A stretch of DNA of 64,000 bases from Podarcis gaigeae. Taxonomy: Eukaryota. Shown here piece after piece: positions 1,763-58,936 of the stretch. The number at the start of each line of letters is the position of its first letter. The stretch's first letter is position 1. The DNA lies in the NCBI GenBank assembly GCA_964106915.2, contig OZ066915.1; one strand, given 5' to 3'. The position numbers and the translations under genes were made by a program. The notes beneath the pieces are model-generated. The model was not told where the DNA came from. It was given only the letters and a program-made list of their open reading frames with translations, and ran no database searches.

Positions 1763-4569
1763 GTGTGAGAACATTACGTTCCAGGATCCAGAGATGGTGC
1801 CAGTGGATGCAGGAAAGAAATTTCGAAACTACTTCCTTATAGACGTCTTAATGAAGAAGATGGGGAAGATCTTCTGCCAAGTCCCTCAAGGTAAAAGGCT
1901 CCTGGCTCCTCCGTGCTGCTGTGTCTCCTGCTCCTGTAGTCAATTGAAGCAACTGCTTTTCCTTTGCCTCATGTAGGGCTGCTGTCTGTCCCACGCTATA
2001 TGGAGGTTAGGAATTGTTTTTGTGCAGTTGCCTTAACAAATTGCAGGAAGCATCTCATTCTGGAGAGATACCCTTGCCTAGAGGGGCTTATAGACTGTTG
2101 AGCGGGGAGAAAAGCGGGAGGCTGGGAATGATCAGCGGCCTGTGTGAGTAGGGGAATAACTGTTTGTGGTGTAAGTGGGAGGCTCAGAACAAGGAGGTTC
2201 TGGGAAAGATGTACTGAAGTACATACTTTAGATCTTTTTAACTGGCATGTTGTCTGGTGAATTCCACTTTGACCGTTTTGGTGTTTGCGCTGAAATTCTG
2301 GTTCTACTGTGCTGTTTGGCCGTAGTGATAAACATTCATTCATTCTGGTTGGGATAGCTGGGATAGCAGGCTTGTTGGGTTTTGAATGTCTTATTGAGAT
2401 TTTTCAATTTCGTTCTGTATGGGACAATGACAATAAAGAGTATTGTATCATATCGTATTCAGATGCACTGAAGAGAGGGGAAAGTTCTGGTGAAAAGGGG
2501 TGAAGGTGGCTGTTGCAATGGGAGTTTGGAGGTGGGAATGGAAGAGGGGGCGGGATAATAGTGTGGGAGAGAGGTAGAGCAGTGGAAGCTTCAAAAGAAA
2601 AGGCTTTTGCAGTATAGCTCAGTTGGCAGAGCAGGAGACTCTTACCCGCAGAGTTGTGAGTTTGAGCCCCATGTTGGGCAAAATATTCCTTCATTGGACT
2701 AGATGCCCCCCCCCAATCCCCTCCAACTCTGCAGTTCTATGAAAAGACAAAAGCATTGAGATTGACTTTTGGAGCTAGTGCAGCACAGTGGTAAAGAGAC
2801 TGAACTGAAAACCAGGAAGTTTCGCCATGACCATTAGCTCACTGGGTAGTCTGAGACATAGGACTATTCCATAAGCTTCTGCCCTGTATCGGCTATCATA
2901 GCAGTGCTGATTCACCATCTTTATGGTTAAAGCTTTGGGAACACCAATATAGATAGGAGCTTCTTTCCACTCACCATCAGAATTTCATACACTGACATAT
3001 CAGAGTTGCCCTGAGTAGGAAGCTGACCACTACTAGGCTGGTGTGCTAGGGCTATGTCTTTATTGATTTCCCCTCCTTCTCATTCTGTATGAACTGGTGA
3101 AATTCTAGAGCTTGGAAAACCACTTTTTACGCTGTGGTTCTGCTCTCATAAGACATCCCTTAAAGTAAAAAGGTAAAGGTAAAGGACCCCTGGACAGTTA
3201 AGTTGAGTCAAAGGCGACTATGGGGTTGCGGTGCTCATCTCGCTTTCAGGCCAAGGTCCACTGACAGCTTTCCGGGTCATGTGGCCAGCATGACTAAACT
3301 GTTTCTGGCGCAGTGGGACTCCGTGACAGAAACCAGAGCACACGAAAACACTGTTTACCTTCCCCCTGCAGCAGTGCCTATTTATCTACTTGCACTGGTG
3401 TACTTTTGAACTGCTAGGTTGGCAGGAGCTGGGACAGAGCAATGAAAGCGCAGGGAATCAAACTGCTGACCTTCTGGTCAGCAAGCCCAAGAGGCTCAGT
3501 GATTTAGACCACAGCGCCACCCGCGCCCCTAAAACATCCATTATGTTGTATGGGAATGAGCAGAGGCCAATTTGTTGTGTAAAATATGCCAAGGCCGAAG
3601 TAGCTGTCTTCACAGGCATGTTTCATGTGTGTAATTGAGCAAATGAAAGATTTTAATTTTGTATAGGGTGTAAATCTTGAGCTGCCACTTGACCACTCCT
3701 GTATTAAAGACTTCCTGCGTATTTGCATAATAAACTAAAACGGTTATTAACATCCCCGTGAGCTAGAAACTGCTGAATTAAAACCAACTGTGGAAGTGGT
3801 CCTGTTCGGTGAGAGGTGGTGACTGCCATGCCAAAGCTCTTCTTAAGGACATGGTTCCATTCAACTCTTGAGAGTAACGTCTGCTATTAACCTGCCCTGA
3901 GCCATTTGAATAAGGCAGGCTGTGAATCGGAGGAATTCCATGCTTGGAACCTACTAAATGTATACGGAACCAAATGCGCAACCTCCTTTTTTAAGCGTTT
4001 TGTTTTCTTGATCTCTCTCTCTCTCTCTCTCTCTTTTTCCTGCAGCTGAATTGATTCTGGACCCCGAGACGGCCCACCCACGCCTCACCGTTTCCTCGGA
4101 CTGCCTCGGCGTCCGGCTCGGAGAGCGCTGGCGGGACCTGCCCGACAGCCCCAAGCGCTTTGACTCCGACTACTGCATTCTGGCCTTGCAGGGTTTCACC
4201 TATGGCCGCCACTACTGGGAAGTGGAGGTGGGGGGCCGGCGGGGGTGGGCTGTGGGGGTGGCTCGCGAATCGGCCCGGCGCAAAGAGAAGTCCGCCGGCA
4301 GCGGCTCCCACCAGAAACGCGAGATCTGGTGCGTGGGGACCAATGGCAAGAAGTACCAGGCTCTGACGACCACTGAGCAGACCTCCCTTTCCCCATCTGA
4401 GAAACTCCGCCGCTTCTGCGTCTTCCTGGACTATGAACGGGGCCAGCTGAGCTTCTACAATGCCGAGAGCATGGGCCATATCCATACCTTCAACGCCTCG
4501 TTCCGCGAGCGCATCTTCCCCTTCTTCCGCATTCTTTCTAAGGGGACCCGCATCAAAATCTGCAATTGA
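1763..4569 (+). CDS. TRIM41: E3 ubiquitin ligase TRIM41, last two coding exons: join(1763..1890,4046..4569); 5' exons not located in window
   Basis: AG/GT-bounded exons splice in frame: [54 protein letters not shown]...[18 protein letters not shown]...[11 protein letters not shown]...[16 protein letters not shown]. These are TRIM41-specific B30.2 motifs; gene is tail-to-tail with RACK1 as in human and chicken. Confidence 0.92.
2612..2740 (+). mobile_element. tRNA-derived SINE (other copies approx. 19375-19500, 22350-22475(-), 27897-28030, 47670-47800)
   Basis: tRNA-like head (AGCTCAGTTGG..GAGACTCTT..TTGAGCCCC) followed by a shared GGACTAGATG..TCCAACTCT tail; several diverged copies. Confidence 0.6.
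3170..3530 (+). mobile_element. Sauria SINE
   Basis: AAGGTAAAGGTAAAGGACCCCTG head and GGGTCATGTGGCCAGCATGACT core; shared with five other copies. Confidence 0.8.
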
Positions 4570-8405: not shown

Positions 8406-9481
8406 CTCTTTGGAAACACACTGGGGGTTTTTTAGCAGCAGGGGAAATAAATCACTGAGCTTCCTGCAGTCTTCCCAACCTCCTATAACAGTTTTCCTTT
8501 ATTCTGATTTCTTGCTTCTGATATATTTAAAGGAGGTTGCTTTGGGTTTTTTTGTTTTTAAACATACTGGGCAATAATACACTTCCTTTTTGCAAAGGAA
8601 GCTCTCTTATCCTGCATAAGCTGCACATACCAGCATCCTCTTGGGGTTCCAGTTTCCCAATCCATTGCAGAAACCTGAGCTCTTTGTTTCAAAATAACCT
8701 CAAATTTGACTCAATGGAGTCTCCCTTGGAGACCAACTTTTTCTAAGCAACTCTACTTTCACAATGTCTATATGCAGTCTCTGCGAAGGTAATTGAAATC
8801 ATCCATCATTTTCTCTTTCACTTGCCTGTGACCTTTTTCTTAAGTCTCAAAACCACCACTGGTACTTCAAATCATAGGCGCCAGGGTGGGTTGGGGGTTA
8901 GCTATTCTGCACCTTTCCGTAAATTGCTTCTGTCGTGGTATTTGCATCCGGTGATCTTATGATGCATTTGTCACTGGTTTTTGAATCCTGGACCCAGTAT
9001 ATCATACCCTTCCTTTTAAGATTTTTATATCCAAGGAAAACCGTATTCATGTTCTTTAAGACCCATACAATCCAGCTTCCCTGTTCTAGTGCTGATGCTT
9101 CTGTGATTGGCTGCAAAATGTTTAATGCAGTCCAGAAGCAGCTGGGTTTGAACAGGGCTTTTGTAACAAGGTATTTTAAAACAAACCATGCAAGTTGTCT
9201 TGAGTTGCACGGGCTTTCAAGGAATAAGCTTGGAATCTCTTGTCCGAGACAGGCACGTTGACGTCCGAGACAGCTGTTACCCTAAAGGCAAAGGTAGGTA
9301 ACCTTTTTCAGTCCAAGGGCCAAATGAACATGTGGCTGATGTATGTATACATGCACAAAAACACATGCAGCCTCCCTATACATACACACCAAGCAGACCT
9401 GCACTTGCAGGCATAACACACTTGAGCAGGAAGACAGGGCTTACCAAGTCCTCCCCAGTGGTTGGGCTGTGGGGTGGGGAA

Positions 9482-9997
9482 CAGGGTGGATAAAAACCAA
9501 TGATTTATATATATTTTAAATCGGATTTTTAAAATAAAATGCTTTTGGAGGAAAAATCTTTCTAAAGATAGTTTTCTATTCAAGTTACATTATAGTCCGA
9601 AGGCCATCGGATTTGTTTTAGTTTTTCGTATGTGCTAAAACTCAGTCTGGGTTTTTGTTTGTTTTTTAAACCGTTTTACCACATCAGTTAACAAACATGG
9701 ATACATATGCTATAATGTTATTGCTTTAGTTAAATAAATTGTTAAGGAAATGATTATTTTTCTACTTCCAATAAAGTTCTGCAAATATAAACAGTCAACT
9801 TATTAAGCCGCACAGTAATTTCATAATTATCTGTATTTCCAATAGTTTAACCAAATCAGTAATGTTTGATGTAACTCTAAATACTCTGAAAATTTATTAT
9901 TCCAAAAATGAAGTCTTTCTGTAAAAAAATGATTTAAATCAAGTCTTACTGATAATTTAAATTGTGATTTAAATCAATTTGATTTAAATCCACCCTG
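9482..9997. mobile_element. Non-autonomous hAT-type DNA transposon
   Basis: TIR CAGGGTGGAT/ATCCACCCTG; perfect 8-bp TSD GTGGGGAA. Confidence 0.85.
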
Positions 9998-10349
9998 GTG
10001 GGGAATATGCTGCTTTTTACTCTTCATCTCTAAAGAGTTCTGTAGAGGATTTTATCACCCCATCTCAGCACTGAGATCTGACTGAGGTTTGCAGGGATCT
10101 TTGGTCTACTCCTTGCAGTTTCTGGGTTGCCCCTGGCGCACAGGTTTGTCATTCCTGATCTAAGGGGACAAGGCGTTTTATTCCTGGTTGAAGCGATGGC
10201 AGCTTCCATCAGCTGAGTGTTAATTCAGCAGTGGGTTGGGAGAGATGTCTGTAAAAAACAGGTAAGTGAATAGACACTCTCATTTTCCAGGTATATCTTT
10301 GGGGTGGGGGGGAGAAGCAGGACACAGTGATAACGTTCAGCACAAAAAG

Positions 10350-10355
10350 TTTATT
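10350..10355 (-). terminator. RACK1 polyadenylation signal AATAAA
   Basis: TTTATT on +, about 55 nt after the RACK1 stop. Confidence 0.8.
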
Positions 10356-10409
10356 GTTTCTGTTTTGTACATAATTATATGTCTGTGCCTTGTGGTCAAC
10401 TGCACTCTC

Positions 10410-20460
<10,051 letters not shown>

Positions 20461-23962: not shown

Positions 23963-24035
23963 GTTTCTGTAGTGTAGTGGTTATCACGTTCGCCTCACAC
24001 GCGAAAGGTCCCTGGTTCGAAACCGGGCAGAAACA
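23963..24035 (+). tRNA. tRNA-Val (CAC)
   Basis: 73-nt GTTTCTGTAGTGTAGTGGTTATCACGTTCGCCT-CAC-ACGCGAAAGGTCCCTGGTTCGAAACCGGGCAGAAACA; cloverleaf intact; T6 Pol III terminator at 24048-24053. Confidence 0.95.
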
Positions 24036-26155
24036 GCCTTACATACATTTTTTGCCTTTACATTAATAGAGACTGCAGACCAAGACTTCATTGAAGTTGA
24101 TAAGTTAAAAAGAGTCTGTTTTATCTCCCACCTCCCATTTGTAAATTCATTAACCAACAAAATAAGTCTGTTTTGTTTCAAAGTAGGATTTTGTGCTGAT
24201 ACTGAGAAATTAAATGCTTGTGGCTTGAAAGCCCATTAAATTTTGGAGAAGTTCAGAGAAAACTGAATAAAGTGTGTGACTTGATTTTTTAAATTTTTTA
24301 TTAAATTTTTTATTTTTGTATAAAATCATACAAACTTTAACCTGTAGGTTTATTGCTTGTTCACAATCAAGTCTGAATATTATATCCAAACTGGCAGGTA
24401 TGTCCATTCATTCAAGTGATCACTCATTGTTTCAGACATCCATACTCTAACAGTACTATTCATATTTTGTAAGTCCCATTTACTCAATGCAGATAAAACT
24501 TCATTGAAATCAATAGGTTTTACTTCAGGGTAGTTGTGGAGGACTGTGCTGAAAGGCTGCAGTCTTATGCACACTTACCTGGGAGTAAGCTCCACTGGAT
24601 ACATGGGACATGTTTGTGTGTGTGTTTTCTGTGCGTTATTCATTAAACTCTGGTCTAGAATGGGAATGGGGAATATGGGATTCTCCAGACGTTGTTGGAC
24701 AACCCCCCAAAAAAAATTTCATTTATGAATCACTAGCTTCAGCTTCTGGGTCACCCTGAAGTGCAGCCCTGCATGCAGCACATTGCAGTAATCCAGTCTG
24801 GAGATTTCCAGTGCATTGACAACAGTAGTCAAGACTATCGCTGTTCAGAAACAGCCATAGCTATCTTACCTACCCAAACTGGTAAAATATACCCTTAGCC
24901 ACTGAGGCCACCTTGCAAATAAAGATGGGTCTGCGTGAAACCTCAGACTACAACTCTCTTCAATCCCTCAATATTGGCCATGCTGGTTGGGGCTGATGGG
25001 GATCTATTTTATTTTATTAGATTTATACGCCACCCTTAATCATAAGATTTCAGGGCAGTTCACAGAATAAAATATAGGATAAACAAGTAAATGTTGGAGT
25101 CCAACAACATATGGTGGACAACAAGTACCCCATCAGTAAATTTCAAGCTCAAAAAATGTGGTGTCTCTCCCCCCCCCCTATTTTCTTTCCAGGACACGAA
25201 GGCACAAATTTATACGTGGTTTAAGCCTCCACATCTCAGTAACCTGCAGAGCTGCTGCCAGCCAGTGTCCATAACATGGAGCTATAAAGACCAGTGGCCC
25301 AACTAAGTATAAGGCAGTTTATCTTTTTGGCCTGGAAATGTGATGCTCCTTCTAAAATCCTGCCACCAGACTGGATGCTTTATGGTTCACATGCGTATTA
25401 ATATTTTTGATTTCTGGCTATTGCAGATGCATGTTTTCTGGAAGCCACTCTTGAGAGACTTGCCACTCTTGCATTATAACATTTGAAATAAACAATAAAT
25501 CCGTTGCACTCGGTGGGACCTTCTTCGAATATGTGCAGGATAACACTATTGGTAGTTTTCATGCAGCATTTGCCCAGTAATTAACGTGTCAGGACGGAAT
25601 GCCAAATACAAAAGGGCTACCAATTAAGTATGCATGAAGCTCCATCATCGCGGAATCAAATTTCAGGAGCTCTCATACAGCTCGGCGACTACCTGCTCTA
25701 AACGTTAGCTTAATGTTACCTTCGTCCATTCCCTATTAGGCGTCTCCTGAGCTTCCTCGCACCTGGAAAGTGGGGGATGAGAACCCCCCCCCAAAAAGAC
25801 CCCAATCAGCACATTTAAGAAACAAATGATTAGATACGAGATAGCTAAAAAAACCACCCCGCATCTCTCTCTCTCTTCTCCCGCCCCCCGCCCGCCCCGC
25901 GGTGGTAATATCGAAGCTAGGCATGTAGTCGGCGGGTTCCAAAGCGGACCTGAGTGAAAACTGTCACTATTAAGTTCCTCTCCAACGGTGTGACAGAAGG
26001 AAGGCGGGGGTGGGGTGGGGGAGAAGAGACGGACATATGCAAATTTGTTCTTTTACGTCAGCCTCACCACACTATATATACCCTGATGCCCGGCTTATTT
26101 CTCAGTGGCGCTCCGGACAGCTGGCAGCGCGCTGTCTTCGCGGGAGGGTGGAAGG

Positions 26156-26791
26156 ATGGGTCGCGGAAGGCGGCCGGGATCACGGCAGGGAAAGCGTCAA
26201 GGAACTCGGCGGCAGGGAAGGCGTCAAGCAACCCGGCAGGGAATCCGACAGGGAAGCCCCGTACTTCACACCGAGGCAGAAGGCTCGAGCGCCCCTCCGC
26301 CTGCAACTATTTCCGAACCGTCCACCTCTGAATCCTCGGGGAGAGGAAAGAAGCGCCTTTCCGGCCCTTTGTCTCAGCTTATCCTGAAGGCTTTCGAGGG
26401 CTCCAGCTCGCGGAAAGGCGTGTCGCTGGCAGCCCTGAAGAAATTCCTCAGGGAAGGAGGCTACAACCTGAACAGGAACAAAAATAGCCACCTCAAACGG
26501 GAGCTGCATAAACTGGTATCGAATGGGGTCTTGATCCGCTTAACCGGCAGCGGCGCTTCGGGATCCTTCAAGCATGGCGGGAAAACCCTGCCGAAGAAAT
26601 CTGCCAAGCCTGAGGCGAGGAAAGTGAAGAAAACGGCGGCTGCCCACAAAAGGCCGGCGTCGGGTAGCAGGGAGCCGAGAAAGAAGTCGCCGAAGAAACA
26701 GCCGGCCGTTTCTAAACCGAAAGGTGTCCGAAGTAGTAGAAAGACAGCCGTCCCTGGCAGGAGACGCAGCTCGACAAGCATTCAACGGTGA
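26156..26791 (+). CDS. Intronless histone H1-like protein (211 aa) with Arg-rich RQG-repeat N-terminus
   Basis: H15 globular domain LSQLILKA..RKGVSLAALKKFL..GYN..LHKLVSNGVLIRLTGSGASGSFK; K/R-rich tail with SPKK; TATA at 26073-26080; first ATG 26156; histone stem-loop downstream. Confidence 0.85.
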   Translation: MGRGRRPGSRQGKRQGTRRQGRRQATRQGIRQGSPVLHTEAEGSSAPPPATISEPSTSESSGRGKKRLSGPLSQLILKAFEGSSSRKGVSLAALKKFLREGGYNLNRNKNSHLKRELHKLVSNGVLIRLTGSGASGSFKHGGKTLPKKSAKPEARKVKKTAAAHKRPASGSREPRKKSPKKQPAVSKPKGVRSSRKTAVPGRRRSSTSIQR

Positions 26792-28208: not shown

Positions 28209-28676
28209 GGCTCTGAAAAGAGCCTCTGGGTTTTCTGACACCATGCAGAGAAATGTCCTCATTGTCCTTTGACAGGGACATGACCGGATTTTACTGTCGC
28301 ACTGGAAGATCCAGCAGCTTCACCACTGCTTGTGTTCATCTTTTCAGTTTTGTTAACAGTAGCAAAGCTTGAACATCACCCTGCACAACGGCAACTCCTT
28401 CTACCAGTTTCTGCAGCTCCTCATCATTCTGCACAACAGGATGGATGTGGTGTAGGATAATTCACTGCTTTTAGCCAGCCAGCTCCAGGATTTCAGCACT
28501 GAGATATTCCAGGACTGCAGCCAGATAAACAGGGGCTCCTGCTCCAATTTGCTTTGCATACTTCCCTTTCTGAAGCAGCCTCTGTACTCTAACCACTGGA
28601 AAAGGCAACCTTGCCCTTGTGGACTGAGTCCTTGTCTTGACTCTCATTTCCCCCCAGTCGTGCCACAAGCAGACAC
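28209..28676 (-). pseudogene. Histone H2A pseudogene with retained stem-loop
   Basis: [39 protein letters not shown] then ..QNDEELQKL..; start is GTG, frameshift near codon 10, stops and deletions; GGCTCTTTTCAGAGCC at 28224-28209; CCAAT boxes at 28791-28842. Confidence 0.88.
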
Positions 28677-29029
28677 AATTCTTCTTTCCATCCTCCTCTA
28701 CAGCAAAAGCACCATGTGAATGTTATGGCTTCAAAGTGCCTCATTCATTGACTGAAGTGGGGCAGGGAGGGAATAAGCCTGCCTAAATCTGATTGGTCAA
28801 GGCCTGTAAACCAATAAGGAAAGAGATTCTGATATCTCCAATAAGGAAAAAAGGGCACATTATTCTCATTGAGAACTATCAAGTCTGTGTTCATATATTT
28901 ATTTATAAAGTCATTTGCACTGTGTACTGCTTTTCATTTAAAAAAAACCCAAAGCAGATTACAATAACCATGCACATATACAATTAAAAAAAAACCCATA
29001 GAAATTTAAAAACAAGAGATCTTCAGCTA

Positions 29030-32859: not shown

Positions 32860-33840
32860 CTATCTCCTTCGCCTAGCTCTGCGCTTGGGCCTTTGTGGGG
32901 GAAACGTAGCTTTCCCCTTGGGGCTTTGTTCTTTGGCAGAGGAAACATCTCTGCTCCTGCTGAATCTTGTTTTCTTTGCACTGGGTGTTTCCTTGCTGTA
33001 GGGCTTCCCCACACCTTTCGGAGAGGCTGTGCTGTTGCTCTTAGAAGACCTTGACCTTTCCGAAGTGCTTTTGCTGCTAGCCCTTTTCGATTTCTCCGCA
33101 GAGGCAGGCCTGCTCCTGAGGTTCCTGGTGGTCTTCAAAGCAGACGCAACATTGCTGCTGGAACAGCCCTGACCTTCGGCTTTGCTATCCGAGTTGTCGG
33201 ACGTGCTAGAAGCAGCTTTTTGGGCTAGCCTCTGTGACCTCCGGGCAGTGCCATTTTTCCTGGGGCATCGTCTCCTCCTGTTGGAGATTCGTAGTTTCTG
33301 GTGAGCCTCTCTCGTCGTATCCGCAGAGCTCTTGGCTCCCTCCACTTCTCCTTTCGTTTTTGTGCCAGTGCGTGTGCCATACCTTCGCCCAACTCGGACT
33401 TTCCTTGCCCCTGCAGTCCTTTTGGGGTTTTCAAATATTTTGCTGGCCTTGCTCTGGTGCTTCCTGATGACGAAAAACTTTGAGCCATCGCTGTGAGTCA
33501 TGCGCACCACAGCGCCTTTCAACACCAGGGCGTGCATTTTCCTCTGAGTTCTGGGGCTTTGCCTCCTCACATTGTAGCCCTTGGCGCTGAGGACTTCCTT
33601 CAGCTCTGTGAGGGTGAGGCCGTTCGACGCACTTGCGGCAATCGCTTGCACAACGAGCCCTGAGATATTAGGGAGGGGCTTGACGGTCTTACCAGGATTC
33701 AAGCTTCTCCTCCTTTGCATTGACCTCGTAATTATTGACGACTTTTCGGGGAAACGAGTTTCTCCTCTCTTGCCTCGGCCTGGCCTCTTTCTCCTAGGAA
33801 CTGGGGCCTGTGTTCCTCCAGGCGTCATAACCTCAATCAT
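32860..33840 (-). CDS. Intronless H1-related, protamine-like (sperm nuclear basic protein-like) protein, 326 aa
   Basis: Divergent winged-helix PNISGLVVQAIAAS..GLTLTELKEVLSAKGYNV..MHALVLKGAVVRM..GS.FFVI; long R/K/S-rich tails ending RPKRRARRRR; TATAAA 33944-33939; AATAAA 32769-32764; first ATG 33840 with A at -3. Confidence 0.75.
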   Translation of the reverse strand: MIEVMTPGGTQAPVPRRKRPGRGKRGETRFPEKSSIITRSMQRRRSLNPGKTVKPLPNISGLVVQAIAASASNGLTLTELKEVLSAKGYNVRRQSPRTQRKMHALVLKGAVVRMTHSDGSKFFVIRKHQSKASKIFENPKRTAGARKVRVGRRYGTRTGTKTKGEVEGAKSSADTTREAHQKLRISNRRRRCPRKNGTARRSQRLAQKAASSTSDNSDSKAEGQGCSSSNVASALKTTRNLRSRPASAEKSKRASSKSTSERSRSSKSNSTASPKGVGKPYSKETPSAKKTRFSRSRDVSSAKEQSPKGKATFPPQRPKRRARRRR

Positions 33841-47576: not shown

Positions 47577-48600
47577 TACAGTTATTTAAGGAGGAGCTTG
47601 ATGCATTGAGCAAAAGCCAGGCATTTTAATGAACAAAATGCCCTTCAGAATTCCTTCCCTGTACTTAACTAGAGCACGAGACACTTAATTTTGGGGTCAA
47701 GGGTTAAAGCCCCACCTTGGGCAAAAAATTCCTGCATTGCAGGGGGTTGGACTAGATGACCGCTGTGGTCCCTTCCAACTCTAGGATTCCATGATTCCAT
47801 AGACATAAAAACAAATTACTTATGCTGCGGTTTCTGTAAACATTTTGGGAGTAGACTATTGACTGCTGGTGATAAGCTGCGGATGACGTGGGCTTGAAAC
47901 TTGGCCTCCTTCCCATTTTGCCTGTCCATCTGCGGGCAGCTGATAAGACAGAGACAGATGGGGAACCTTAGAAGAAAAACGTAACAGTCATCAGACACGG
48001 AGATTTGGGGCTGGGTTCCTTACAAATAGAGGTCCCCCTCTCTTTCTCCATCTCACATTAGCTTGGCTTGAGGACCATCAAATGTGGAGATGACTGACAG
48101 ATGCCAGCTGACTGATAAGAACGTTTGGAACCTCTTTCATCTTTTCATTGATTGCTCAAGTCCAGCTGTGATATTGTAAGGAAAAAAAGGGCCTTCTAAC
48201 TTAGGGGAGATTCGAGAGGAAAAGAATCACTCAGAATTCTTTGGTTTTCAGGAGATGGAAGCTGAAGGCAACCTGGGATATCAATGACAAATATTCTTCA
48301 CATGTAAGGTAAAAGAAAGTGCTATAGCATGATTTTGCAGCCGGTCAGCTTTAAAGCAACAAAAGAGCACTTCAGACAAATTTGCTATGGACCACAAAAT
48401 ATGTAGCTAATCCCTGAAACCATATACGTACTGCAGTGACTAACATGAAAGAGTTATTTAAAAGTTTTGAAGTGAAATGTTTCAGTTTCTGCCTTCTTGG
48501 CTGCTTTGATGTGAACCCTTTTCACACCAGAGCAGCTAAAAAAAGAGGGGAACTGAAATGTTTTGTTTTAAACCTTTAATATATCTGTTTTGTTAGACCC

Positions 48601-48777
48601 NNNNNNNNNNNNNNNNNNNNNNNNNNNNNNNNNNNNNNNNNNNNNNNNNNNNNNNNNNNNNNNNNNNNNNNNNNNNNNNNNNNNNNNNNNNNNNNNNNNN
48701 NNNNNNNNNNNNNNNNNNNNNNNNNNNNNNNNNNNNNNNNNNNNNNNNNNNNNNNNNNNNNNNNNNNNNNNNNNNNN
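48601..48777. other. Assembly gap (177 N)
   Basis: Run of N. Confidence 1.
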
Positions 48778-49381
48778 ATATGTAAATATTTTATTTCTGT
48801 AGTACTTCAATTATTGACGGGAGAGCTTTGTATAAAACTAATGCTGTACAGTAGGTAGTAAACATCCTAAGTTAAACACACTTAAATCTCATTGATTACA
48901 GTGGTACTCAGTGGAACTGTCAGCACCACTACAGACAGATATGTGTTCAAAGTCCCATCGAATTCAGCACAGGAGCAAGGCTTGCTCTGTGGTTAAAGGA
49001 TTTCAACTTTAAAAGGGCTTTTGACTTTGGATGGCTTGAAAACACATCTTTAAAAATAAATAATGGCTTGATGGTAGATAGAAGGGAAGGTAAGAGCTCA
49101 GATGGTTAGAGTGTGGTGTCAAGGTTGCATCCTGTGGAGTAACAGTGATTCATTCCAAAGGACTGGGAGAATGACAAATGCCTTTAGGAATAACAGTAGC
49201 CAACACATTTTTCTTGTGGTTTTATCAACTATGGGCACTTCCAGAATGTGACAGTTTTGTGGGTGGGAGTCAATCACATTCTGGCAAGTTCAGATTGTGC
49301 AGTTAAAGTGGATTGGGCACTCTTGTAATAATAATAAAAGATAATACTGTTTGTGCCAGAACAACATACTGGTAACAATTG

Positions 49382-49645
49382 TGTTGTGTACTGAAGTTCT
49401 CACCCTGGACCAGCAGGGGGACACTGTAGATAGTTTTCACTCAGGTCCACATATGCAAATAAGGGACTGAAAGTGACATTCAGTGACTGGATAGTTACAG
49501 AAAGTGGTTACTGTTGCGTCGTAGTGCAGCTCTATATAAGCAGGCTGGCTGAACCCTTCAGTTCAGTTCTGTTCTGGCCTGTGAATAAACAAGAGCTGCT
49601 TGAAGAATCGCTGTGTCGTCTGATATGTTCACCCACAACTTAACA
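49382..49645 (+). mobile_element. Solo LTR
   Basis: TGTT...AACA termini, 5-bp TSD AATTG, TATATAA and AATAAA; related to 57463-57727. Confidence 0.82.
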
Positions 49646-50619
49646 AATTGCTTGACATGATGTCATAAAGACAAATTAGGGCAAATGCTGACGTTAGCAG
49701 ATTGACTGGAAGTGGCATCTATGACAGGCAGAAATCCAGCCGGTTCCAACTTTCCCCATACAGGAACATAAGAAGTTTCTTTTTACTGAATCGGACCCAA
49801 GACTGGTCCATTCTAGGCCAGTCTTGCCTATGGTTACTAGCGGAGGCTCTCCTCTCGGACAGGGAACCTCTTCCCAGCTCTACCTGGAGATACTGGGAAT
49901 TGAACCTGCGACGTCTTGCATGACAAGGCAGATGCTCTACCACTGAGCCACTACAGCCCATTCCTTCATTACCTCTCCATGCAGGGGAAACCTGCATGTG
50001 TAATTTCTGCATGTCAGTTAAAGGCGCAGAGCTTCATTCTGGAGATGGGCCATTCTTCTCCCCTGCCTGCCTCCTCCTCCTCCTCCTCCAAAAAAAAAAA
50101 AAAAAGGAAAAGGAAAGACTTTAAGGTGGTAAGAAGTTTGAAAGAGATGTGACTGTTCCTACTGTATACATTCATCCCCGATTTGCCTCTGGCAAACAGA
50201 GGCTGTGTGTGCACGCTACCAGTTTTCTTAATCTGGATCAAAGCTGCTTAATGCATTGAAACACAGTATTTCCTAAGAAATGACAGGATAGATGAGGATT
50301 GGGGCAAATGTCGTGCTTTATGCTGCTTCTCAGACCAGTGCCTTGGATGCTGAGCAGGGGTGCAATATTCCTAAAAGTGACAATCAGGACAAAGTTGTTC
50401 AGCTTTTTGGGGGAGATGTTGACTGTTTGGGGGCTTTTATATGATTTTTAAAGCATTTTTATTTTTTAAAAACCTTTCTTGCTATACATCCGGGTTTTCC
50501 ACCTTTGTATGGCAGGCCTAATGCAGAGTAAACACAGCCAGATGTCTTTCTTATTTCAAATTCCTGTTTGACTGCAGGTGTCGGTGAGGCAAAGCAAATG
50601 GGAAGAGAGTCCTCTTGCA

Positions 50620-50667
<48 letters not shown>

Positions 50668-51000
50668 TTATTTATACCCCGCCCACCTGGCTGGGTTTCC
50701 CCAGCCACTCTGGGCGGTTTCCAACAGAACACTAAAATACAATAACCAATTAAACATTAAAAGCTTCCCTAAACAGGGCTGCCTGCAGATGTCTTCTAAA
50801 AGTCTGGTAGTTATTTTTCTCTTTGACATCTGATGGGAGGGCGTTCCACAGGGCGGGTGCCACTACCAAGAAGGCCCTCTGCTTGGTTCCCTTTAACTTG
50901 GCTTCTCGCAGGGAGGGAACCGCCAGAAGGCCCTCAGCGCTGGACCTCAGTGTCCGGGTAGAACGATGGGGGTAGAGACACTCCTTCAAGTATACTGGAC
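50620..51000 (-). mobile_element. L2-like LINE 3' fragment with (TTA)n tail
   Basis: RTLRSSAEGLLAVP..RAFLVVAPALWNALP..FRRHL. Confidence 0.78.
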
Positions 51001-51469
51001 TGCAAACCATCACAAAAGCCTATTGCAGCAGTCGCCGACCTGGTGCCCCCTGGGTGCTTTAGACTGCGACTGCCATCAGCCCCAGCATGTGAGCTGGATG
51101 GGACTGATGGCAGTAGTTGCTCAAAACATCTGGAGGTAACCAAATTAGCAGAGGCTGATAATTGGAAGAGCACCAAGGGCCAGATAGAGAGACATGGAGG
51201 GCCATATTCAGCTCCTGGGGGTCTGAGGCTCCCCATCCTTAAGCTAATCTCAAAGTAACATCTTCCTAGCATCTTCTTGTGGTCATCATGGACCATTCCG
51301 CAGGCATGCACCTTAAGTTACAAAACTTTATGAAAACAGAGAGAGAAAGAGGATTGGGTATCATAATCAGTTTGTAAATCTCTCTCTCTCTCTCTTTCTC
51401 TTTCTGTCTCTCTCTCTTTCTTTTTCTCTTTATCTTGCTTTATCCCCCAGAGGCCAGAAAAGAAAGAAA

Positions 51470-54400
51470 ATGGAGGTGACCATCTTCTCTTGCGACCCAG
51501 AAATGCGTTCCTTTCTGTTCATTCTCACCATTTTCTTTGTTATTCCACCTATAAATAATGTGGACCCTGGTAAGACTCTCACTAGTACCTCTCATAGAAA
51601 TTGTTCGTGGCTAAAGTGTCTTATTTTTCTCTGAAGGGAGATATCATCATCATCTACCAGCAGCCTAGATACCAGCTTCTCATACGTACCCAAAAGTACC
51701 GTGAAATTCTAAGTTGTTGTGGCATGCTTAGGTCCATCTAGCTCAGGAACCAGCTGTGGTCAAACCCAGGTCTCAGGGAAGATTATTAACATCACAACCA
51801 TGCCATACATTTAGAGCAGTCTGATACCTTTTTATTTATTTCATAAACTATACCGATTGATTATAAGAAAAGAAAACCTCAAAGCGGTTTAAAGAAACAG
51901 TTGTTGTTGCTGGGTTTTTTATGCTTCTTTTGAATAGATTCCAGGAAGACTTTGAATTATCCCACTATTTCTGTTTGTTCTCAATTCAGCAACAGGCCTT
52001 GCCCCCCTTATTTCCATCGAAGGCTATCAGGACAGGGGGATCCGAATAGTTTGCCGATCCAGTGGTTGGTACCCAAAGCCTGAGATCCTATGGAGAGGTC
52101 CGAATGGGAGGCACTTCCCTTCACTGGGACAAAAAATTTCCATGGAGGGCAATGGGTTGTTTGAGGTGCAGAACGACATCATCCTAACAGGAAGTTCAAA
52201 TCATAGCCTAACCTGTGTGGTCCGGAACAGCTTCCTCAACCAAGAAAAGGAATCAACTATTCATATAGCAGGTAAGCTGTCCAGAATTCTTGATAACGGT
52301 TCTGTATTTTGGGGCTGCTCTGTACAAATGATGCCTTCAAAATATAGTCTTTCCTTCAAAGAATTCTGGGAAATGTAGTTGGTTAAGGGTCAGGGCTAAA
52401 CTACAGTAGCCAGAATTCTTTGAGAGAAAGGATGTACTTTGAATGTGCTTTGAAGGTATAAAGGTAAAGGTAAAGGGACCCCGACCATTAGGTCCAGTCG
52501 CAGATGACTCTGGGGTTGCAACACTTATCTCGCTTTATTGGCCGAGGGAGCCGGCGTACAGCTTCCGGGTCATGTGGCCAGCATGACTAAGCCACTTTTG
52601 GCAAACTAGAACAGTGCACGGAAACGCCGTTTACCTTCCCGCCAGAGCGGTACCTTTTTATCTACTTCCACTTTGGCGTGCTTTTGAACTGCTAGGTTGG
52701 CAGGAGCAGGGACCGAGCAACGGGAGCTCACCTCGTCGCGGGGATTTGAACCGCCGACCTTCTGATCGGCAAGTCCTAGGCTCTGTGGTTTAACCCACAG
52801 CGTTTTAAATTCTCAAGTGATGTGTAGTGAACGAGTGAGGGGAGAAGCCTGAAGTCAACCAACGTTGACACCAACGTATTCTAAAGAGAAGGAACTCAAG
52901 AAGAGAACCAGTGAGAACTTCTAGCAGGCTCACTTCCCAACTAGGTCATTAGAGACAGTGGCAGATTAAATTCGCTGTTGAAATGTGCACCAAGATGATT
53001 TCATAGGACTGTAGAATTGTAGAGTTGGAAGGGACCTTGATGGTCATCTAGTCCAGGGGTAGGCAATCTAAGGGGCCGGATGCGGCTCAATTGCCTTCTC
53101 AGTCCGGCCCACAGACGGTCCAGGAATCAGCATGTTTCTACATGAGTAGAATGTGTCCTTTTATTTAAAATGCATCTCTGGGTTATTTGTGGGGCATAGG
53201 AATTCGTTCAATTCCCCCCCCCCCCCAAATATAGTCTGGCCCACCACATGGTCTGAAGGACAGTGGACTGGCCCGCGGCTGAAAAAGGTTGCTGACCCCT
53301 GATCTAGTTCCCCATCCAGGTTGAAGCCATACTGGAACCTGCTGAGCGTTGCAAATGTGCTAGCAATTTTATTGCTGCACCCCTTTCTCAGCTCCATGTT
53401 ACATTTTCATCAGTAGGGAGCGAGAGCGAGCGAGCGAGCGAGAGAGAGAGAGAGAGAGAGATGGGGAAGACACAGGGACCCCATTTTATTTATTGCCTTT
53501 CAGTCAGGTGATTCTCAAAGTGGCTTTCATAATAAACTACCCCTTCCCCTGCAAACTCACAGCAGTCCTTAAACCCCTGGCTGACGAAAGTTCTGGGACA
53601 TATTGCTATTCAGTTCCAGACAGCATCACCCTTGCATATATATATGTACTGGGATGCCATGCTGGATGAAGCAAGTGTTATGTCTGAGTATATTTCAGCA
53701 AGGATAGGAAGAAGTGCTATATTATAATATGTTAGATTAAAATCACTTTTGATTCAGGATCTGGGCAATGGTGAGCTCCTACTGCGGCAGCAGGGACTCG
53801 TTTGAAGCTCCTCTCAGGATCAGGAATTTCCTGCAGAACAGGAGGCTTATTAAAAGTTCAGTGCTTGGAGGATAGGGAGGGCAAAATTCAGGGCCTCAAG
53901 TGTGCAGAACCAGCATGCAGCTCAGAAGGCTATAAAAACCCCTGCAGCGTGATCAGAAGGGGGAGAACGCAATAGCGGGGGGGAGGGAGAGGCGCTGCCA
54001 AATCTTTGGCATCTGTTTTTCTTTTATTTGATTCAGAAGCCAGGTTTATAACATCGTTGGTAATTTGCTTTGTTTTCAGATCACTTCTTCCCAAAGATCT
54101 CTCAGTGGATAGCTGGTTTGTGTGTCTCCCTCTTGGCTCTTCTCGGTTTCATTCTCCTCCTCCTTTACCTGTTTAATATAAACAGTGAGTACCTAGGAAG
54201 CTGCGTCATAAAGGTAAAGGTAAAGGGACCCCTGACCATTAGGTCCAGTCGTGACCGACTCTGGGGTTGCGGCGCTCATCTCGCTTTATTGGCCAAGGGA
54301 GCCGGCGTACAGCTTCCGGGTCATGTGGCCAGCATGACTAAGCTGCTTCTGGCGAACCAGAGCAGCACACAGAAACGCCGTTTACCTTCCCGCCGGAGCG

Positions 54401-57400
54401 GTACCTATTTATCTACTTGCACTTTGACATGCTTTCGAACTGCTAGGTTGGCAAGAGCAGGGACTGAACAACTGGAGCTCACCCCGTCACGGGGTTTCGA
54501 ACCGCCGACTTTCTGATCGGCAAGTCCTAGGCTCTGTGGTTTACCCCACGGCGCCACCAGTGTGTAAATGGTGTCATTATGTGCTTTTGATACCAGGTGG
54601 CACTGTGTAGCATCTTCTAGCTCAGTCTGTAGGTCAGCAGACTCTTAACCTCAGGGTTGTGGGTGCAGGGGTTTGGACTATATCAGTGTTTCCCACATTT
54701 GGGTCTCCAGCTGTTTTTGGACTACAACTCCCACCATCCCTAGCTAGCAGGACCAGAATGAGAAGCTGTGGCTTTAACTCTTGGCCCCCACAGTGGGCCT
54801 AATCCAGATTGTGCATCCAGACTTACAATTTGTATTGCCAAAAAGAAGAGGTCCCATCTGCTTCAGTCTTGCTCTTAATTAATCATGATACTACAGGAAA
54901 ATCGGCACACCTTATTCAGACCAGAAACAACGGGTGGCTAGATTGTACACTCAAATGTTTACAGCAGTTATAATTATTTCTTCTTTCCTTTCTCTTCTAG
55001 GAAAGCTTTCTGCAGAACTGAGTAAGTCATTCTGCCTCTTTTGAGAAGAAAAACACATTTAGGTCACAGTGCTGTGCAGAGACAGGCAGTCTTAAGTCCA
55101 TTAATTTAAATAAACTTAACCATGCCTGAGAGTACAATTCTTGTTGTTTACTCAGACGCATATCCCACTGGTTTCACTTGGCTTTACTCCCCAGTAATTG
55201 TGCATAGAATTGCACTGACTCTGTATTGGACTGTGGTCTTAAAAAAAAGGGGGGGGGAGACTATTTTAGTAAAATTAGGTTGTTGTTTTTAAGTAGACGT
55301 GAAAGTTTGGTTCAGTTCAAGCCAATAGCAAAAACAGCTGAAACAACACATGCAGCTTGAGTGGGTAAAAATAATTGATTCAGAATTTCCACTGTAAAAG
55401 GTATTTCAAAAACCTTTCCCCAGTTTAGAATAAGGCTTGTTAGGTAGCAAAACTGCTAACTCTACACTAACAGTGGCGCCCACCCTGTGGAACGCCCTCC
55501 CACCAGATGTCAAAGAGAACAACAACTATCAAACTTTTAGAAGACATCTGAAGGCAGCCCTGCTTAGGGAAGCTTTTAATGTTTGATGTATTACTGTATT
55601 TTAATACAGTATTTGGTTGGAAGCTGCCCAGAGTGGCTGGGGAAGCCCAGCCAGATGGGCGGGGTATAAATAATAAATTATTATTATACCATTATTATTA
55701 TTATTATTATTATTACAGGACACTGGGTGTTTTCTCTCCATGTTTCCAAGAACAGGTGAAATTCATCAAACTGAGGCATTCAGCCTCGGTTCCCTTTTTT
55801 AAAAAATGTTTGAATTATAGGAGGGGGCTCTCCCCATGCACATATTCAACATTGTTTTCCCAATAGAATCCTTGGAACTGTGGTTTGTTTAATGGTGCTG
55901 GGAATTGAAGCTCTTGAGGGAACTACAGTTCCCAGAACTGCCACAAAGCACAGACACTCTCTGTACAATGTCCAATGGCCTACTCTGAGGCAAAATAACC
56001 CAGGATAGTCTAGAAGGGCCCATATCATTTAATGGCACCAAAAACTATTCAGAACAGGCCTCAGAGGAGGTCAGCACACCAGAAGAGAACGCAGTCAGCA
56101 CATCTCCCTCAGATGGTACCTTGTCTTGTGCCAGGCCTACATAGCTGTCAGCACTGAAATAGTATTGGTGTTTTTTATGCATAAAGCACCCAAAGATCAA
56201 GATTTTCCATATCAATGTTAATTTGTCATTGTGTGGTTGCTTTTAGGTTGGAGGAACTTGGTGATGCCAATCAAAAAAGGTAAACGGCTCTCCTGTTTTC
56301 GTATGCGTGTCACAATGCATTATTTCAGGCATGAAATCTGTTGCCACTCCCTTTTTCACATTAATTGAGGACGCAATAAAACTACCATGGTGCGGTTGAG
56401 TGGGGTGGGGAAGGAGAACCTGTGAGGTGAATATCTTTCGCGTGGTGAGATTTAGCACTCACCATGTGATGGGAATCTGGTGTTATCCATTCGGGTCACG
56501 TTTTTTAATAGTTACTTCAGAAGATTCTCAACGGTTACGGGAATCTTTGTTTGTTTATCAAGATTTATATACCACTTGATTTGTTTGTTTTTAAAGAACA
56601 AGAAAATCTCTAAGCGTTTTACAAACCTTGATATCCTCCACTGGTGCCACAGAATACCTGTTCTGCATCTGAAATAAATAGATATTTTAGTGTGGTGGCA
56701 CCTGTTGATATCCCTGTACTCTTTTCGGCACCTGCCAAAAACATTTTTGCTTAGACAAGCCTACTCAGGTATTGGAATGCTGGTGTGTTTTTAGTTTGCT
56801 GCTGGTTTCAATTTTTTGAATGCTCAGATAAGTTTTGACTAAAGATTTTGTTGTTTCCTTCATTTCATCAACCCCTGAGGGAATTTTATTTTTATTTTTT
56901 TACAATCAAGCAGTGTATCAACCATATGAAATGAATGAACCAATTTAAGGAAACACTACTGCTGTGGAGAAATTTCAAATCTCTAGGGGGGAAAGGCGAT
57001 TCTTCCACTTGACTGCCAGATAGTATTACCGGTGCATAAAGTTGATGTGTGAGCATCTACTCTTGGGTGTATTCTTTTAATTCAAACTTGCAGCAGTTTC
57101 TTCTTACAGAAAATCTTTATTATTTACACAAATTTACACTGGTCAAATCAGCGGCGTAGCGTGGGTTGCCAGCACCCGGGGCAAGTAATTTGCGCCCCCT
57201 AACCTGCCACCGCTGCCAGCTTCTTCTTGCTGCTGCCTGGGCTGGGCTATTTATGGTAAGGTAGCCACGGCGGCGGCGGGGGGTCCGTGTCAGGTGATCT
57301 GAGGTGAGTTGCCGCTGGCGCTGCCGCCCAAACGACGCTGCTTGCCCGGAGGAGGAGGAGGGCAGAGAGGCGAGGAAAATGCAACATGGCCCAGCAGCTG

Positions 57401-58773
57401 CAGCAGCAGCGGCGGCAGCGGGGCTGTGAGGAGGGGTTGCCTGGCGCGCCCTCCGCGGCTCTTGTTAAGTTGTGGGTTGACATAGCAGATGACACAGCGA
57501 TTTCTCCAAGTAGCTCTTTATTTTGTAAGCTGGAGTAGAACTAACTGCAAACAGCTCAGCCAGCCTGCTTTTATAGGCAGCCGGCTGTCAACATTGTAGC
57601 AACAACAGCCCAGAGTTCCCGCCTAAAATAACTGACGTGGACCTGAGTGAAAACTATCTACAGACCTGAGTGAAAACTATATACAGTATCCCCCTGCTGG
57701 CCCAGGGTGAAACTTCACTACATAACAGCCCTGACGCATGGGGACCGCGGCGAGCGCTGAGAGCCTTCAGCCCAGACGCGCGCACAGCTCGTCGGTTCCG
57801 CGAGACATGGGGCTCTGCTACAGCCTGCGCCCGAGGCTCTCCGGCGACTCCAGAGGCGGCGAGCGCGCCCCCCTGATGTTGTGCCCGGTGCGGCCGGCCC
57901 CCCCTACGCTACGCCACTGGGTCAAATAAAACAACATAATTCCTTCTCCTCTATCCATCCGACTCTGAGATTCAATTGCTCGTTTTCAACTTTGTTCATT
58001 TACACACTGACTTTGACCTTTAATGACCACATGCCCTTAATAGAGGCTCCTGTTACGAGATTTTTCTGTTGCCTAAGCAACCTGTTCAAGACCAATTCTT
58101 TCTAGAATATTCCAATAAGTCAAGAAGGCAGCAGGCAGATAGCACGTGCCAGTGCAACTGGTTACGCTGGCCCTCAGCCGCAACACTGTCTGGTTAACAC
58201 TGATATTGCCCTCCTTCCTTCCGTGACCTCTTTCCTTCTCATCTTCTCCACCCTGCAGCAAATGTAACCCTGGATCCGGACACAGCGAACAACGAGCTCA
58301 TCCTGTCTGCGGACCGGAAGAACGTCATACAAGGCTTCACATGGCACAGCCTGCCTGACAGCCCCCTGAGATTCAGCCTCGAGCGCTGCGTTTTGGGAAG
58401 CGAGGGCTTTTGCTCAGGAAGACACTACTGGGAAGTGGAGGTGGGCGAAGAGGGGTACTGGGCCGTGGGGCTGGCAAGGGGTTCCGTGAAGAGGAAGGAG
58501 TGCCTCAGCCTTGACCCCAGCGAAGGGATCTGGGCCGTGGAGAAGTGCCGGGTCCAGTACCAAGCTCTTACCGTCCCCGAGACGCCCCTGTCTTTGCGGA
58601 AGAGACCCAGGAAACTTGGGATTTACTTGGACTACGAGAGGGGGCAAGTGGCGTTTCATGACGTCAACCACAAGACACCCATCTTCACTTTCCCCTCTGC
58701 TGCTTTCGACGGGGAGGTGGTCTTCCCTTTCCTGCAGGTCGGGGTGGGATGCTGGCTTCGACTGTGCCCCTGA
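51470..58773 (+). CDS. Butyrophilin-like protein lacking IgV, 351 aa: join(51470..51569,51990..52271,54080..54184,55001..55021,56247..56279,58259..58773)
   Basis: Leader MRSFLFILTIFFVIP; IgC APLISIEGYQDRGIRIVCRSSGWYPKPEILW..LTCVVRN; TM WIAGLCVSLLALLGFILLLLYLF; 21-nt and 33-nt linker exons; B30.2 [31 protein letters not shown]; all introns GT-AG phase 1; 1056 nt open. Confidence 0.85.
52460..52801 (+). mobile_element. Sauria SINE
   Basis: AAAGGTAAAGGTAAAGGGACCCC head and family core. Confidence 0.82.
53054..53301. mobile_element. hAT-type MITE (8155 family)
   Basis: TIRs plus TSD ATCTAGTC/ATCTAGTT. Confidence 0.8.
54210..54557 (+). mobile_element. Sauria SINE
   Basis: Family head and core; inserted about 25 nt after the BTN TM-exon donor. 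Confidence 0.82.
55473..55715 (+). mobile_element. L2-like LINE 3' fragment
   Basis: APTLWNALPPDVKE..TFRRHLKAAL; (TAT)n tail. Confidence 0.72.
57149..57919. mobile_element. hAT element carrying captured GC-rich sequence (Pack-TIR-like)
   Basis: TIR CAGCGGCGTAGC/GCTACGCCACTG, perfect 8-bp TSD GGTCAAAT; ends match 30770-30937 but the interior differs. Confidence 0.85.
57463..57727 (-). mobile_element. Solo LTR nested inside the hAT element
   Basis: TGTTA...TAACA termini, TSD GCTCT/GCCCT, reverse-complement similarity to 49382-49645. Confidence 0.78.
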
Positions 58774-58936
58774 GACCTTCCTTGTGTGATGTTTAATGGG
58801 CAAGCAAGGCATGACACAGCGGACTTGGAAGGCACCTCAAAAGTCATCTCTGCTTATGCACTGCAGATGGGATGTGTGCATCTATTGCTTTATGTTTTCC
58901 TGCGCTTTTAAATATTTTGTGGGAAGCAGCCTAGAG

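Follow-up and report, generated by a model that had tools for sequence, protein, structure and literature searches.

An in-frame butyrophilin gene lacking the IgV exon in Podarcis gaigeae and other squamates

In the lizard Podarcis gaigeae, a butyrophilin gene has its leader exon directly followed by the IgC exon, with no exon between them for IgV, the outer domain through which mammalian butyrophilins contact T cells. A sequence-only reading of the window (the whole 64,000-nucleotide stretch of contig OZ066915.1 that was analysed) took it to be a remodelled, IgC-only butyrophilin. The locus raises two questions: whether an IgV domain is truly absent from a functional gene, and what such a butyrophilin could do in an animal without gamma-delta T cells.

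Six exons, all with GT-AG boundaries and phase-1 junctions, encode leader, IgC, transmembrane (TM) segment, two short linkers and B30.2. The coding sequence totals 1056 nt (351 aa plus stop) with no internal stop, which confirmed the intact ORF of the sequence-only reading. The leader exon has no fixed 5′ edge. The earlier start at 51451 was not upheld, because the exon extends further upstream: tblastn matches of related models began at 51446, further exons lie upstream, and RNA contigs of a related species covered about 126 nt at the leader, up to a repeat that was skipped. The far-upstream pair of exons is possibly read-through from a neighbouring gene.

Table 1. Coordinates of the butyrophilin gene and associated features in the window.
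Feature	Position	Strand	Remarks
Pair of exons far upstream (41367-41444 and about 42322-42417)	41367..42417	+	RefSeq 375-aa isoforms of P. muralis and Z. vivipara splice both straight to IgC
Two likely 5′ exons (48090-48176 and 48244-48309)	48090..48309	+	tblastn match to the N-terminal extension of the 411-aa P. muralis database model (P0020)
Leader (signal-peptide-like) coding exon	51470..51569	+	100 nt from ATG, 33 codons + 1 nt; aligns with leaders of IgV-bearing orthologues
First intron	51570..51989	+	420 nt; orthologues have intron-IgV exon-intron at the same place
IgC exon	51990..52271	+	282 nt; BTN-type C2-set, PF22705; RNA contig coverage in runs X15 and X16
TM exon	54080..54184	+	105 nt
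Juxtamembrane exon 1	55001..55021	+	21 nt, 7 codons
Juxtamembrane exon 2	56247..56279	+	33 nt, 11 codons
B30.2 (PRY-SPRY) exon including stop codon	58259..58773	+	515 nt

The IgC domain retained both Ig cysteines (C55 and C109) and one N-glycosylation sequon (N104), and its PF22705 score of 106.9 bits was the top match genome-wide. Pfam analysis of the P. muralis orthologue found C2-set_3, PRY and SPRY, whereas V-set was not found. The leader and TM exons were homologous to those of orthologues, and the P. muralis protein has a predicted long helix (residues 136-173). A structure model of this protein had a mean pLDDT of 66 and a pTM of 0.41, and a fold search with it returned BTN structures and nothing beyond the sequence result. 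Prediction of an IgC homodimer, run without an alignment, scored 0.09 against a mark of 0.32 and gave an answer neither way.

The gap between leader and IgC contained no IgV-sized exon, as originally described; stops occurred in all six frames of the intron. The IgV motifs D.G.Y.C, PC.L.P and EV.W were absent from every frame of the entire window. tblastn with five orthologous IgVs gave no match in intron 1, the other introns or 6.9 kb upstream, and no Ig exon was matched in 200 kb downstream. The single N run in the window (48601-48777, upstream of the leader) cannot hide an IgV exon, because it measures 177 nt and an IgV exon about 350 nt. Two genome searches, in which the best candidates were scored, revealed no orthologous IgV elsewhere; the best matches were 29% and 38% identical and lay on other contigs, whereas orthologous IgVs were 70-91% identical to the Sceloporus query. 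A hidden or relocated IgV was rejected on the outcome of the motif scan, tblastn and these genome searches. As to a relic in intron 1, the best candidate was an 11-codon look-alike at 51615-51647, not clearly above chance: its score was matched in 8 of 300 and 6 of 150 shuffles and in 13 of 148 real 420-nt tiles of the window. The gene thus has the membrane-proximal BTN-type IgC, short juxtamembrane exons and cytoplasmic B30.2 of a canonical BTN/BTNL, and lacks the N-terminal IgV in the intron, the window and the rest of the genome searched. By its domain content it is classed as an IgV-deleted orthologue of a canonical BTN, rather than as a canonical BTN.

We compared the model with database orthologues and with RNA contigs. 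It was identical to P. raffonei XP_053234972 at 344 of 351 positions and to P. muralis XP_028569842, of equal length, at 339 of 351. The leader-IgC junction was identical in orthologues of five lacertids and the amphisbaenian Rhineura (six species, separate assemblies), and IgV was absent from all 19 models fetched from these species. Runs X15 and X16 are from a related species, and their RNA status is presumed. In record 9 of X16, IgC occupied positions 184-463 and B30.2 positions 624-760; the 160 nt between them correspond to the modelled short exons (3+105+21+33-2). Upstream of IgC the contigs continued for no more than 183 nt (X16) and 228 nt (X15), and the bin depths were as expected if these contigs extend over 126 nt of the leader (9.62 × 126/334 = 3.63 and 5.82 × 126/334 = 2.2). 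The leader-IgC splice is inferred from this length and depth, the joint being absent among the junctions listed. The nine coding differences listed between the B30.2 exon and run X16 comprised six synonymous and three non-synonymous changes (dN/dS about 0.16, p = 0.009, for these nine; the contig piece has 27 differences, UTR included).

In relative-rate tests, 23 of 24 comparisons showed no difference between lineages. The single exception was IgC in Rhineura versus Python (chi2 4.57), in which the IgV-less lineage was the slower. By these protein comparisons, the domains that are left in IgV-less genes have not evolved faster. It is highly improbable, and already largely refuted, that the gene is a collapsed assembly or a pseudogene keeping its frame by chance. 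RNA contig depth was low (5.8 and 9.6); however, the junction is shared by models from the separate assemblies of six species, which tells against assembly error, a relative has a contig spliced as modelled, substitutions are biased to synonymous sites, and rates are unchanged. We found none of the marks of a pseudogene (frame breaks, missing transcript, neutral substitution). These findings indicate that the IgC-only butyrophilin is a real, spliced gene.

The sequence-only reading treated IgV absence as local to one genome, and proposed orthologues in other lacertids, geckos and snakes as a check. The absence proved to be wider: it is shared by the other lacertids and by Rhineura and recurs in other lizard lineages, including some geckos, whereas snakes keep IgV. 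Among 33 squamate species examined, IgV was absent from all models in 9 and present in all models in 24; for Elgaria, Euleptes and Gekko, absence rests on the annotation of four database models. All six fetched Rhineura models of the gene lacked IgV, and one (P0023) also dropped IgC, retaining TM-B30.2. A Rhineura butyrophilin with IgV has been reported (PMC12841164).

In a gene tree of the shared domains, the IgV-less genes were nested among IgV-bearing squamate orthologues. Four IgV changes were required, and monophyly of the IgV-less genes was rejected (p-AU 2e-55); two ancient paralogues, with and without IgV, were rejected by the same AU test. The squamate clade was supported at 100/100 against tuatara and turtles, Elgaria+Varanus at 99/99 and Gekko+Heteronotia at 100/98, and well-supported subclades matched species relationships. 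Because support for grouping Rhineura with lacertids was modest (76/76 in one tree, 86 in another analysis), IgV loss in these two may represent one event or two. Among IgV-bearing species, 0 of 51 models lacked IgV entirely and all 51 held at least part of it, so that splice forms without IgV are not common. This count omits five fragments or unnamed rows (P0061, P0163, P0177, P0183 and P0184) and five unlisted members of one 20-member cluster.

Where IgV is kept, it is highly conserved. Mean identity was 74.1% for IgV, 74.8% for B30.2 and 62% for IgC; IgV was more conserved than IgC in 30 of 30 deep pairs; and tree lengths were 1.31, 1.44 and 2.29, respectively. The protein data suggest that IgV is under strong purifying selection in both snakes and iguanians. 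Such conservation fits poorly with an accessory role. B30.2 was 77-81% identical to gecko and cordylid orthologues, and IgC 57-72%. Heteronotia IgV was damaged: the first Ig cysteine was lost and 10 of 54 otherwise invariant columns were changed, versus 2 of 89 in B30.2, although the excess over IgC (4 of 29) was not significant (p = 0.76) and Heteronotia is the outgroup of the set.

Gamma-delta TCR is reportedly absent across squamates (PMC12841164), and the sequence-only reading suggested release of the gene from a TCR-binding constraint. TCR loss may permit IgV loss. It does not predict where the loss occurs, and TCR loss alone is insufficient, because all squamates lack gamma-delta TCR yet 24 of the 33 species keep a conserved IgV. 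In its simple form, release would mean that IgV became useless in squamates and was lost at random, leaving the rest without a new role. The TCR absence, the several independent losses in the gene tree and the damaged Heteronotia domain agree with this; however, IgV conservation equal to that of B30.2 and its retention, at least in part, in 51 of 51 models from IgV-bearing species make simple release quite unlikely. Co-loss with TCR epsilon was rejected, since TRE is reportedly present in Lacertidae, Amphisbaenidae and Gekkonidae (PMC11754216). The features of a gamma-delta TCR ligand of the BTN2A1/BTNL3 type are missing, IgV being absent and TCR gamma lost according to PMC12841164. The sequence-only reading also suggested a B30.2 sensor; one of the BTN3A1 phosphoantigen type was not supported. 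The BTN3A1 pocket is given as H351, H378, K393, R412, R418 and R469 in PMC6050389; the corresponding positions here, mapped by hand via the BTN3A3 R351H alignment, are E, A, S, Q, E and Q (0 of 6 basic residues).

Four further explanations were weighed. The exposed IgC might have become a ligand-binding domain, or a TM-skipped isoform might be secreted. IgC is intact with both cysteines, and the TM exon is omitted from annotated 305-316-aa isoforms in L. agilis, P. muralis and Z. vivipara. However, the rate of IgC has not shifted in lineages without IgV, and IgC itself is also skipped in one Rhineura model, so a new ectodomain function appears improbable. Alternatively, IgV could have been a pathogen handle whose repeated deletion was favoured while an intracellular function was kept. 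The losses are clean, in frame, repeated and affect an otherwise constrained domain. Pathogen-bound surfaces, however, usually evolve fast, whereas IgV is the slowest ectodomain, and this IgV is not known to be used by any pathogen. The chicken butyrophilin Tvc is a precedent: it serves as a retrovirus receptor, and a null allele of it occurs naturally (PMC12683159); its dependence on IgV appears there as a reference title only. Tvc lies on chicken chromosome 28 in the same paper, and positional orthology to it was dropped for this reason. We regard adaptive loss as having little likelihood. A femoral-gland role was also rejected, butyrophilin being unmentioned in the main text of PMC9000839.

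A third explanation, which takes up the heterodimer partner proposed in the sequence-only reading, is division of labour: two chains would pair, with B30.2 coming from the IgV-less one, and the outer domain and surface trafficking from a distant butyrophilin-like protein that bears IgV (e.g., from contig C25). IgV, IgC and B30.2 exons are clustered on contig C25 of this genome. According to PMC10665462 and PMC11969061, BTN3A2 or BTN3A3 rescues surface display and function of V-deleted BTN3A1, and BTN3A2-BTN3A1 pairing depends on IgC (PMC6050389). The human rescue, however, involves near-identical paralogues, whereas the C25 IgC exons are only 32-34% identical to the one here. Among the best candidates scored in the genome searches, the C25 cluster held the only IgV-IgC-B30.2 genes seen, with no closer IgV-bearing paralogue, and the juxtamembrane part that governs BTN3A pairing is here two short exons (18 codons). 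Division of labour is therefore unlikely. Fourth, a single classical butyrophilin may have persisted in squamates, its IgV having switched to a non-gamma-delta counter-receptor; the interaction would then have been lost independently in lacertids together with amphisbaenians, in alligator lizards and in geckos, so that an IgC-B30.2 protein remained. We consider this a tentative possibility, on the less likely side. If it holds, the IgV-less lineages would be natural knock-outs, and a co-lost surface gene would identify the alternative butyrophilin ligand that has long been looked for.

Our favoured explanation, to which we give about an even chance, is that the gene is the classical squamate butyrophilin minus its IgV exon, in frame, and acts as a membrane-anchored B30.2 protein-binding module for which IgV is a detachable accessory. 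Phase 1 at all coding junctions would make IgV a symmetric cassette whose loss the frame survives. With gamma-delta T cells lost at the squamate base, IgV was likely left with a secondary role only, for which a non-gamma-delta counter-receptor or trafficking help are candidates. Selection would still maintain this role in snakes, iguanians, monitors and cordylids, and other lineages would have lost it on three or four occasions. The part conserved throughout would be the cytoplasmic B30.2, which would bind a partner protein at a membrane; IgC is predicted to serve in folding and as a spacer or dimer unit, not as a T-cell ligand. That membrane may lie inside the cell, given that human BTN3A engineered without IgV fails to reach the surface by itself; V-deleted BTN3A is intracellular unless paired (PMC10665462).

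The finding alone reveals no new mechanism, and the proteins are already in RefSeq under automatic names. We found no paper in the literature searched that remarks on an absent IgV in a lizard butyrophilin. It has been argued that squamate butyrophilins need ligands other than gamma-delta TCR, since they keep IgV, IgC and B30.2 (PMC12841164, 2026). Our results split this claim: conserved IgV in most squamates fits a second ligand, whereas whole lineages without IgV yet with IgC and B30.2 point to a separable intracellular function. The pattern of 24 species with IgV versus 9 without can be used to seek a co-lost partner.

Among known systems, the IgV-bearing squamate butyrophilins (Sceloporus XP_042310934, Anolis XP_008103839, Hemicordylus XP_053158942 and Python XP_007431370) are direct orthologues in one clade. 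Leader, IgC, TM, short linker and B30.2 are common to all, with 66-72% identity over these parts. Between leader and IgC, however, the orthologues retain a conserved IgV of about 116 residues, where the P. gaigeae gene has none. The RefSeq proteins 'butyrophilin subfamily 3 member A3-like / 2 member A2-like' of Podarcis, Lacerta, Zootoca and Rhineura, names that for the lacertid and Rhineura proteins are automatic only, represent the same gene and likewise lack IgV. MOG, ERMAP and chicken BG are IgV-only family members, in which IgC was lost and IgV kept; domain loss via a symmetric Ig exon is the same, and the lizard gene is the mirror case. Among solved structures, human BTN3A1, BTN3A3 and BTN2A1 come closest to the full-length orthologue (E about 1e-93 to 1e-99) and also to the predicted model. 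The IgC-TM-JM-B30.2 order is shared. What sets the human proteins apart is IgV, a long coiled coil in the juxtamembrane part and, for BTN3A1, the basic phosphoantigen pocket. The engineered V-deleted BTN3A1 and BTN3A2 of Karunakaran et al. (PMC10665462) share leader-IgC-TM-JM-B30.2 without IgV. Those constructs are artificial and depend on a full-length paralogue for surface display, whereas the lizard gene, a natural version of them, is old and has no close paralogue in our searches.

All six coding exons proposed in the sequence-only reading of the butyrophilin gene (leader, IgC, TM, two short linkers and B30.2) were borne out, with canonical splice sites, phase-1 junctions and a 351-aa open frame. 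The protein was identical at 344/351 positions to the Podarcis raffonei model and at 339/351 to the P. muralis model, and its IgC was the top PF22705 match genome-wide (106.9 bits; runner-up, 68.4 bits). As also claimed, no IgV exon lies between leader and IgC: the 420-nt intron is closed in all six frames. A motif scan found no IgV motif in the whole 64-kb window, which spans C2:108996001-109060000 and whose sole run of Ns is upstream of the leader. When the P. gaigeae genome was queried with the Sceloporus and turtle IgV, the best matches among the candidates scored were 29% and 38%, respectively, on other contigs only; the Sceloporus query was 70-91% identical to orthologous IgVs. Among the best candidates scored, the IgV exon was therefore lost rather than relocated.

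Searches with the IgC exon revealed orthologues with IgC, PRY and SPRY and no V-set in P. muralis, Lacerta agilis and the amphisbaenian Rhineura floridana; their sequence clusters also contained P. raffonei, P. lilfordi and Zootoca vivipara. IgV was absent in 19/19 fetched models from six species (five lacertids and R. floridana), and in those with the usual leader this was joined directly to IgC. These models rule out a collapsed assembly, and an artefact of any kind is very improbable.

Four sequencing runs were mapped on window positions 49000-59000. X18 gave short pieces only and X19 nothing informative; informative contigs came from X15 and X16, two studies of one related species (organism J), whose RNA nature is a guess of the mapping tool. 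In X16 record 9 (760 nt), IgC occupies 184-463 and B30.2 624-760. The intervening 160 nt match the modelled TM and linker exons over 6 kb of genome; this contig is therefore a spliced transcript. The sequence upstream of IgC (183 nt in X16 record 9, 228 nt in X15 record 1) leaves insufficient room for an IgV exon plus leader. Leader bin depths equalled contig depth × 126/334 (3.63 and 2.2) and IgC bin depths contig depth × covered length (7.57 and 3.94), from which we infer that the same contigs include the leader, the leader-IgC joint not being among the joints listed. This IgV-less butyrophilin is real, old and transcribed.

Models without IgV also turned up in Elgaria (two) and Euleptes (one) in a full-length search, and in Gekko japonicus (one) in a cluster listing. 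Scored with an IgV profile, the 33 squamate species fell into two groups: nine lacked IgV throughout their 23 models, and the other 24 had it, complete or partial, in 51/51 models. In the tree of the shared region, squamates formed a single clade (support 100/100). Elgaria and Varanus grouped together (99/99), as did Gekko and Heteronotia (100/98), with Euleptes next to these two geckos (100/100). Rhineura joined the lacertids with moderate support (76/76; 86 in another analysis). IgV presence required four state changes on this tree, and one IgV-less clade was rejected (p-AU 2e-55). Tuatara and turtle relatives carry IgV; the squamate absences are therefore losses. The Heteronotia IgV is kept with its first Ig cysteine changed to tyrosine, the sole such case among models covering that position, so the gecko cases may represent one functional loss, giving three in total. 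The Elgaria and gecko cases come from annotation, in which deletion and skipping of a broken exon are indistinguishable. Such losses could reflect escape from a pathogen, although we consider this quite unlikely.

Among 30 deep pairs of IgV-bearing squamates, mean identity was 74.1% for IgV, 61.9% for IgC and 74.8% for B30.2, and IgV exceeded IgC in every pair; tree lengths were concordant (1.31, 2.29 and 1.44). In IgV-less lineages, IgC, TM and B30.2 were not accelerated: 23 of 24 relative-rate tests were non-significant, and in the other Rhineura was slower. The nine B30.2 coding differences listed between the window and X16, an incomplete set, comprised six synonymous and three non-synonymous changes (dN/dS ~0.16, p=0.009), contrary to neutral evolution. 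The most useful novelty is the all-or-none, recurrent loss of a domain strongly conserved elsewhere. A literal phrase search, thin on subscription journals, came up with no account of a butyrophilin lacking IgV, in lizards or elsewhere; earlier examples, for instance truncated mouse Btnl genes, could have escaped it. The main text of PMC9000839 does not mention butyrophilin. Thamnophis and Rhineura butyrophilins carry IgV according to PMC12841164; the Rhineura one is probably a different gene.

The ectodomain exons act like interchangeable cassettes. The TM exon is skipped in annotated isoforms of three lacertid species, and IgC in those of Rhineura, Sceloporus and Liasis. A new IgC function or a secreted one seems improbable.

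Divergent IgV, IgC and B30.2 exons cluster in both orientations at C25:24,518,000-24,713,000 on another contig (L046-L065; 200 kb of ~260 kb fetched), with two kinds of B30.2 and one IgC with an in-frame TGA. This appears to be a second butyrophilin-like family, one that evolves fast and is possibly arranged in pairs. The heterodimer suggested earlier, here with a C25 protein, is unlikely; genome searches, which score the best candidates, found no close IgV-bearing partner. Remaining matches presumably resemble CD276, PD-L1 and ICOSL. Two near-identical IgC exons, which we take to be CD276-like, lie 545 kb apart on opposite strands (C26:8,696,309 and C26:8,151,451), which suggests duplication.

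The further B30.2 exons (three in the window; L008, L009 and L010) probably belong to neighbouring TRIM-type genes; no Ig exon was matched near them. An exon ~640 kb from the gene (L045) is presumably MHC-I/CD1-like. No snoRNA reached the Rfam gathering score in the window.

Features in the window
Feature	Position	Strand	Remark
B30.2 exon	4042-4566	+	
RACK1-like exons (presumed)	~9300-20000	-	named from recognised translated peptides
tRNA-Val(CAC)	23963-24035	+	
Linker histone H1/H5-family frame	26087-26788	+	PF00538
Degenerate H2A-like fragment (presumed)	28474-28722	-	recognised by eye; no Pfam match
341-codon open frame	32863-33885	-	R/K/S-rich, H1-like middle part; no Pfam match at 1e-3; possibly divergent linker-histone or sperm basic protein
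B30.2 exon	44044-44544	+	
N run	48601-48777		177 nt
Butyrophilin coding region	51470-58773	+	
Butyrophilin TM exon	54080-54184	+	
B30.2 exon	61488-61991	-	

PMC6050389 and PMC11969061 describe butyrophilin IgV as touching V-gamma, and IgC plus the juxtamembrane part as mediating dimers. Release from TCR constraint, raised as a possibility in the sequence-only reading, is unlikely as the whole explanation. TCR epsilon does not follow the loss of IgV: PMC11754216 reports it for lacertids, amphisbaenians and geckos. In Table 1 of that paper, the two IgV-less species included, Zootoca (5) and Rhineura (4), have some of the highest numbers of TCR-epsilon V segments, as has Anolis (4); the species are too few for inference.

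We give about an even chance to a selected core consisting of the membrane-anchored B30.2, which would bind a protein partner. IgC would serve as a structural spacer, and IgV would be a detachable phase-1 cassette whose secondary role was kept in some lineages and dropped in others. In human BTN3A1, as described in PMC6050389, B30.2 binds phosphoantigen via six basic residues. The lizard B30.2 has 0/6 of these, so the earlier idea of a B30.2 sensor is unlikely for the BTN3A1 phosphoantigen type. Human BTN3A without IgV is retained intracellularly unless a full-length paralogue partners it (PMC10665462). The lizard gene belongs to the butyrophilin family by descent, not by canonical architecture.
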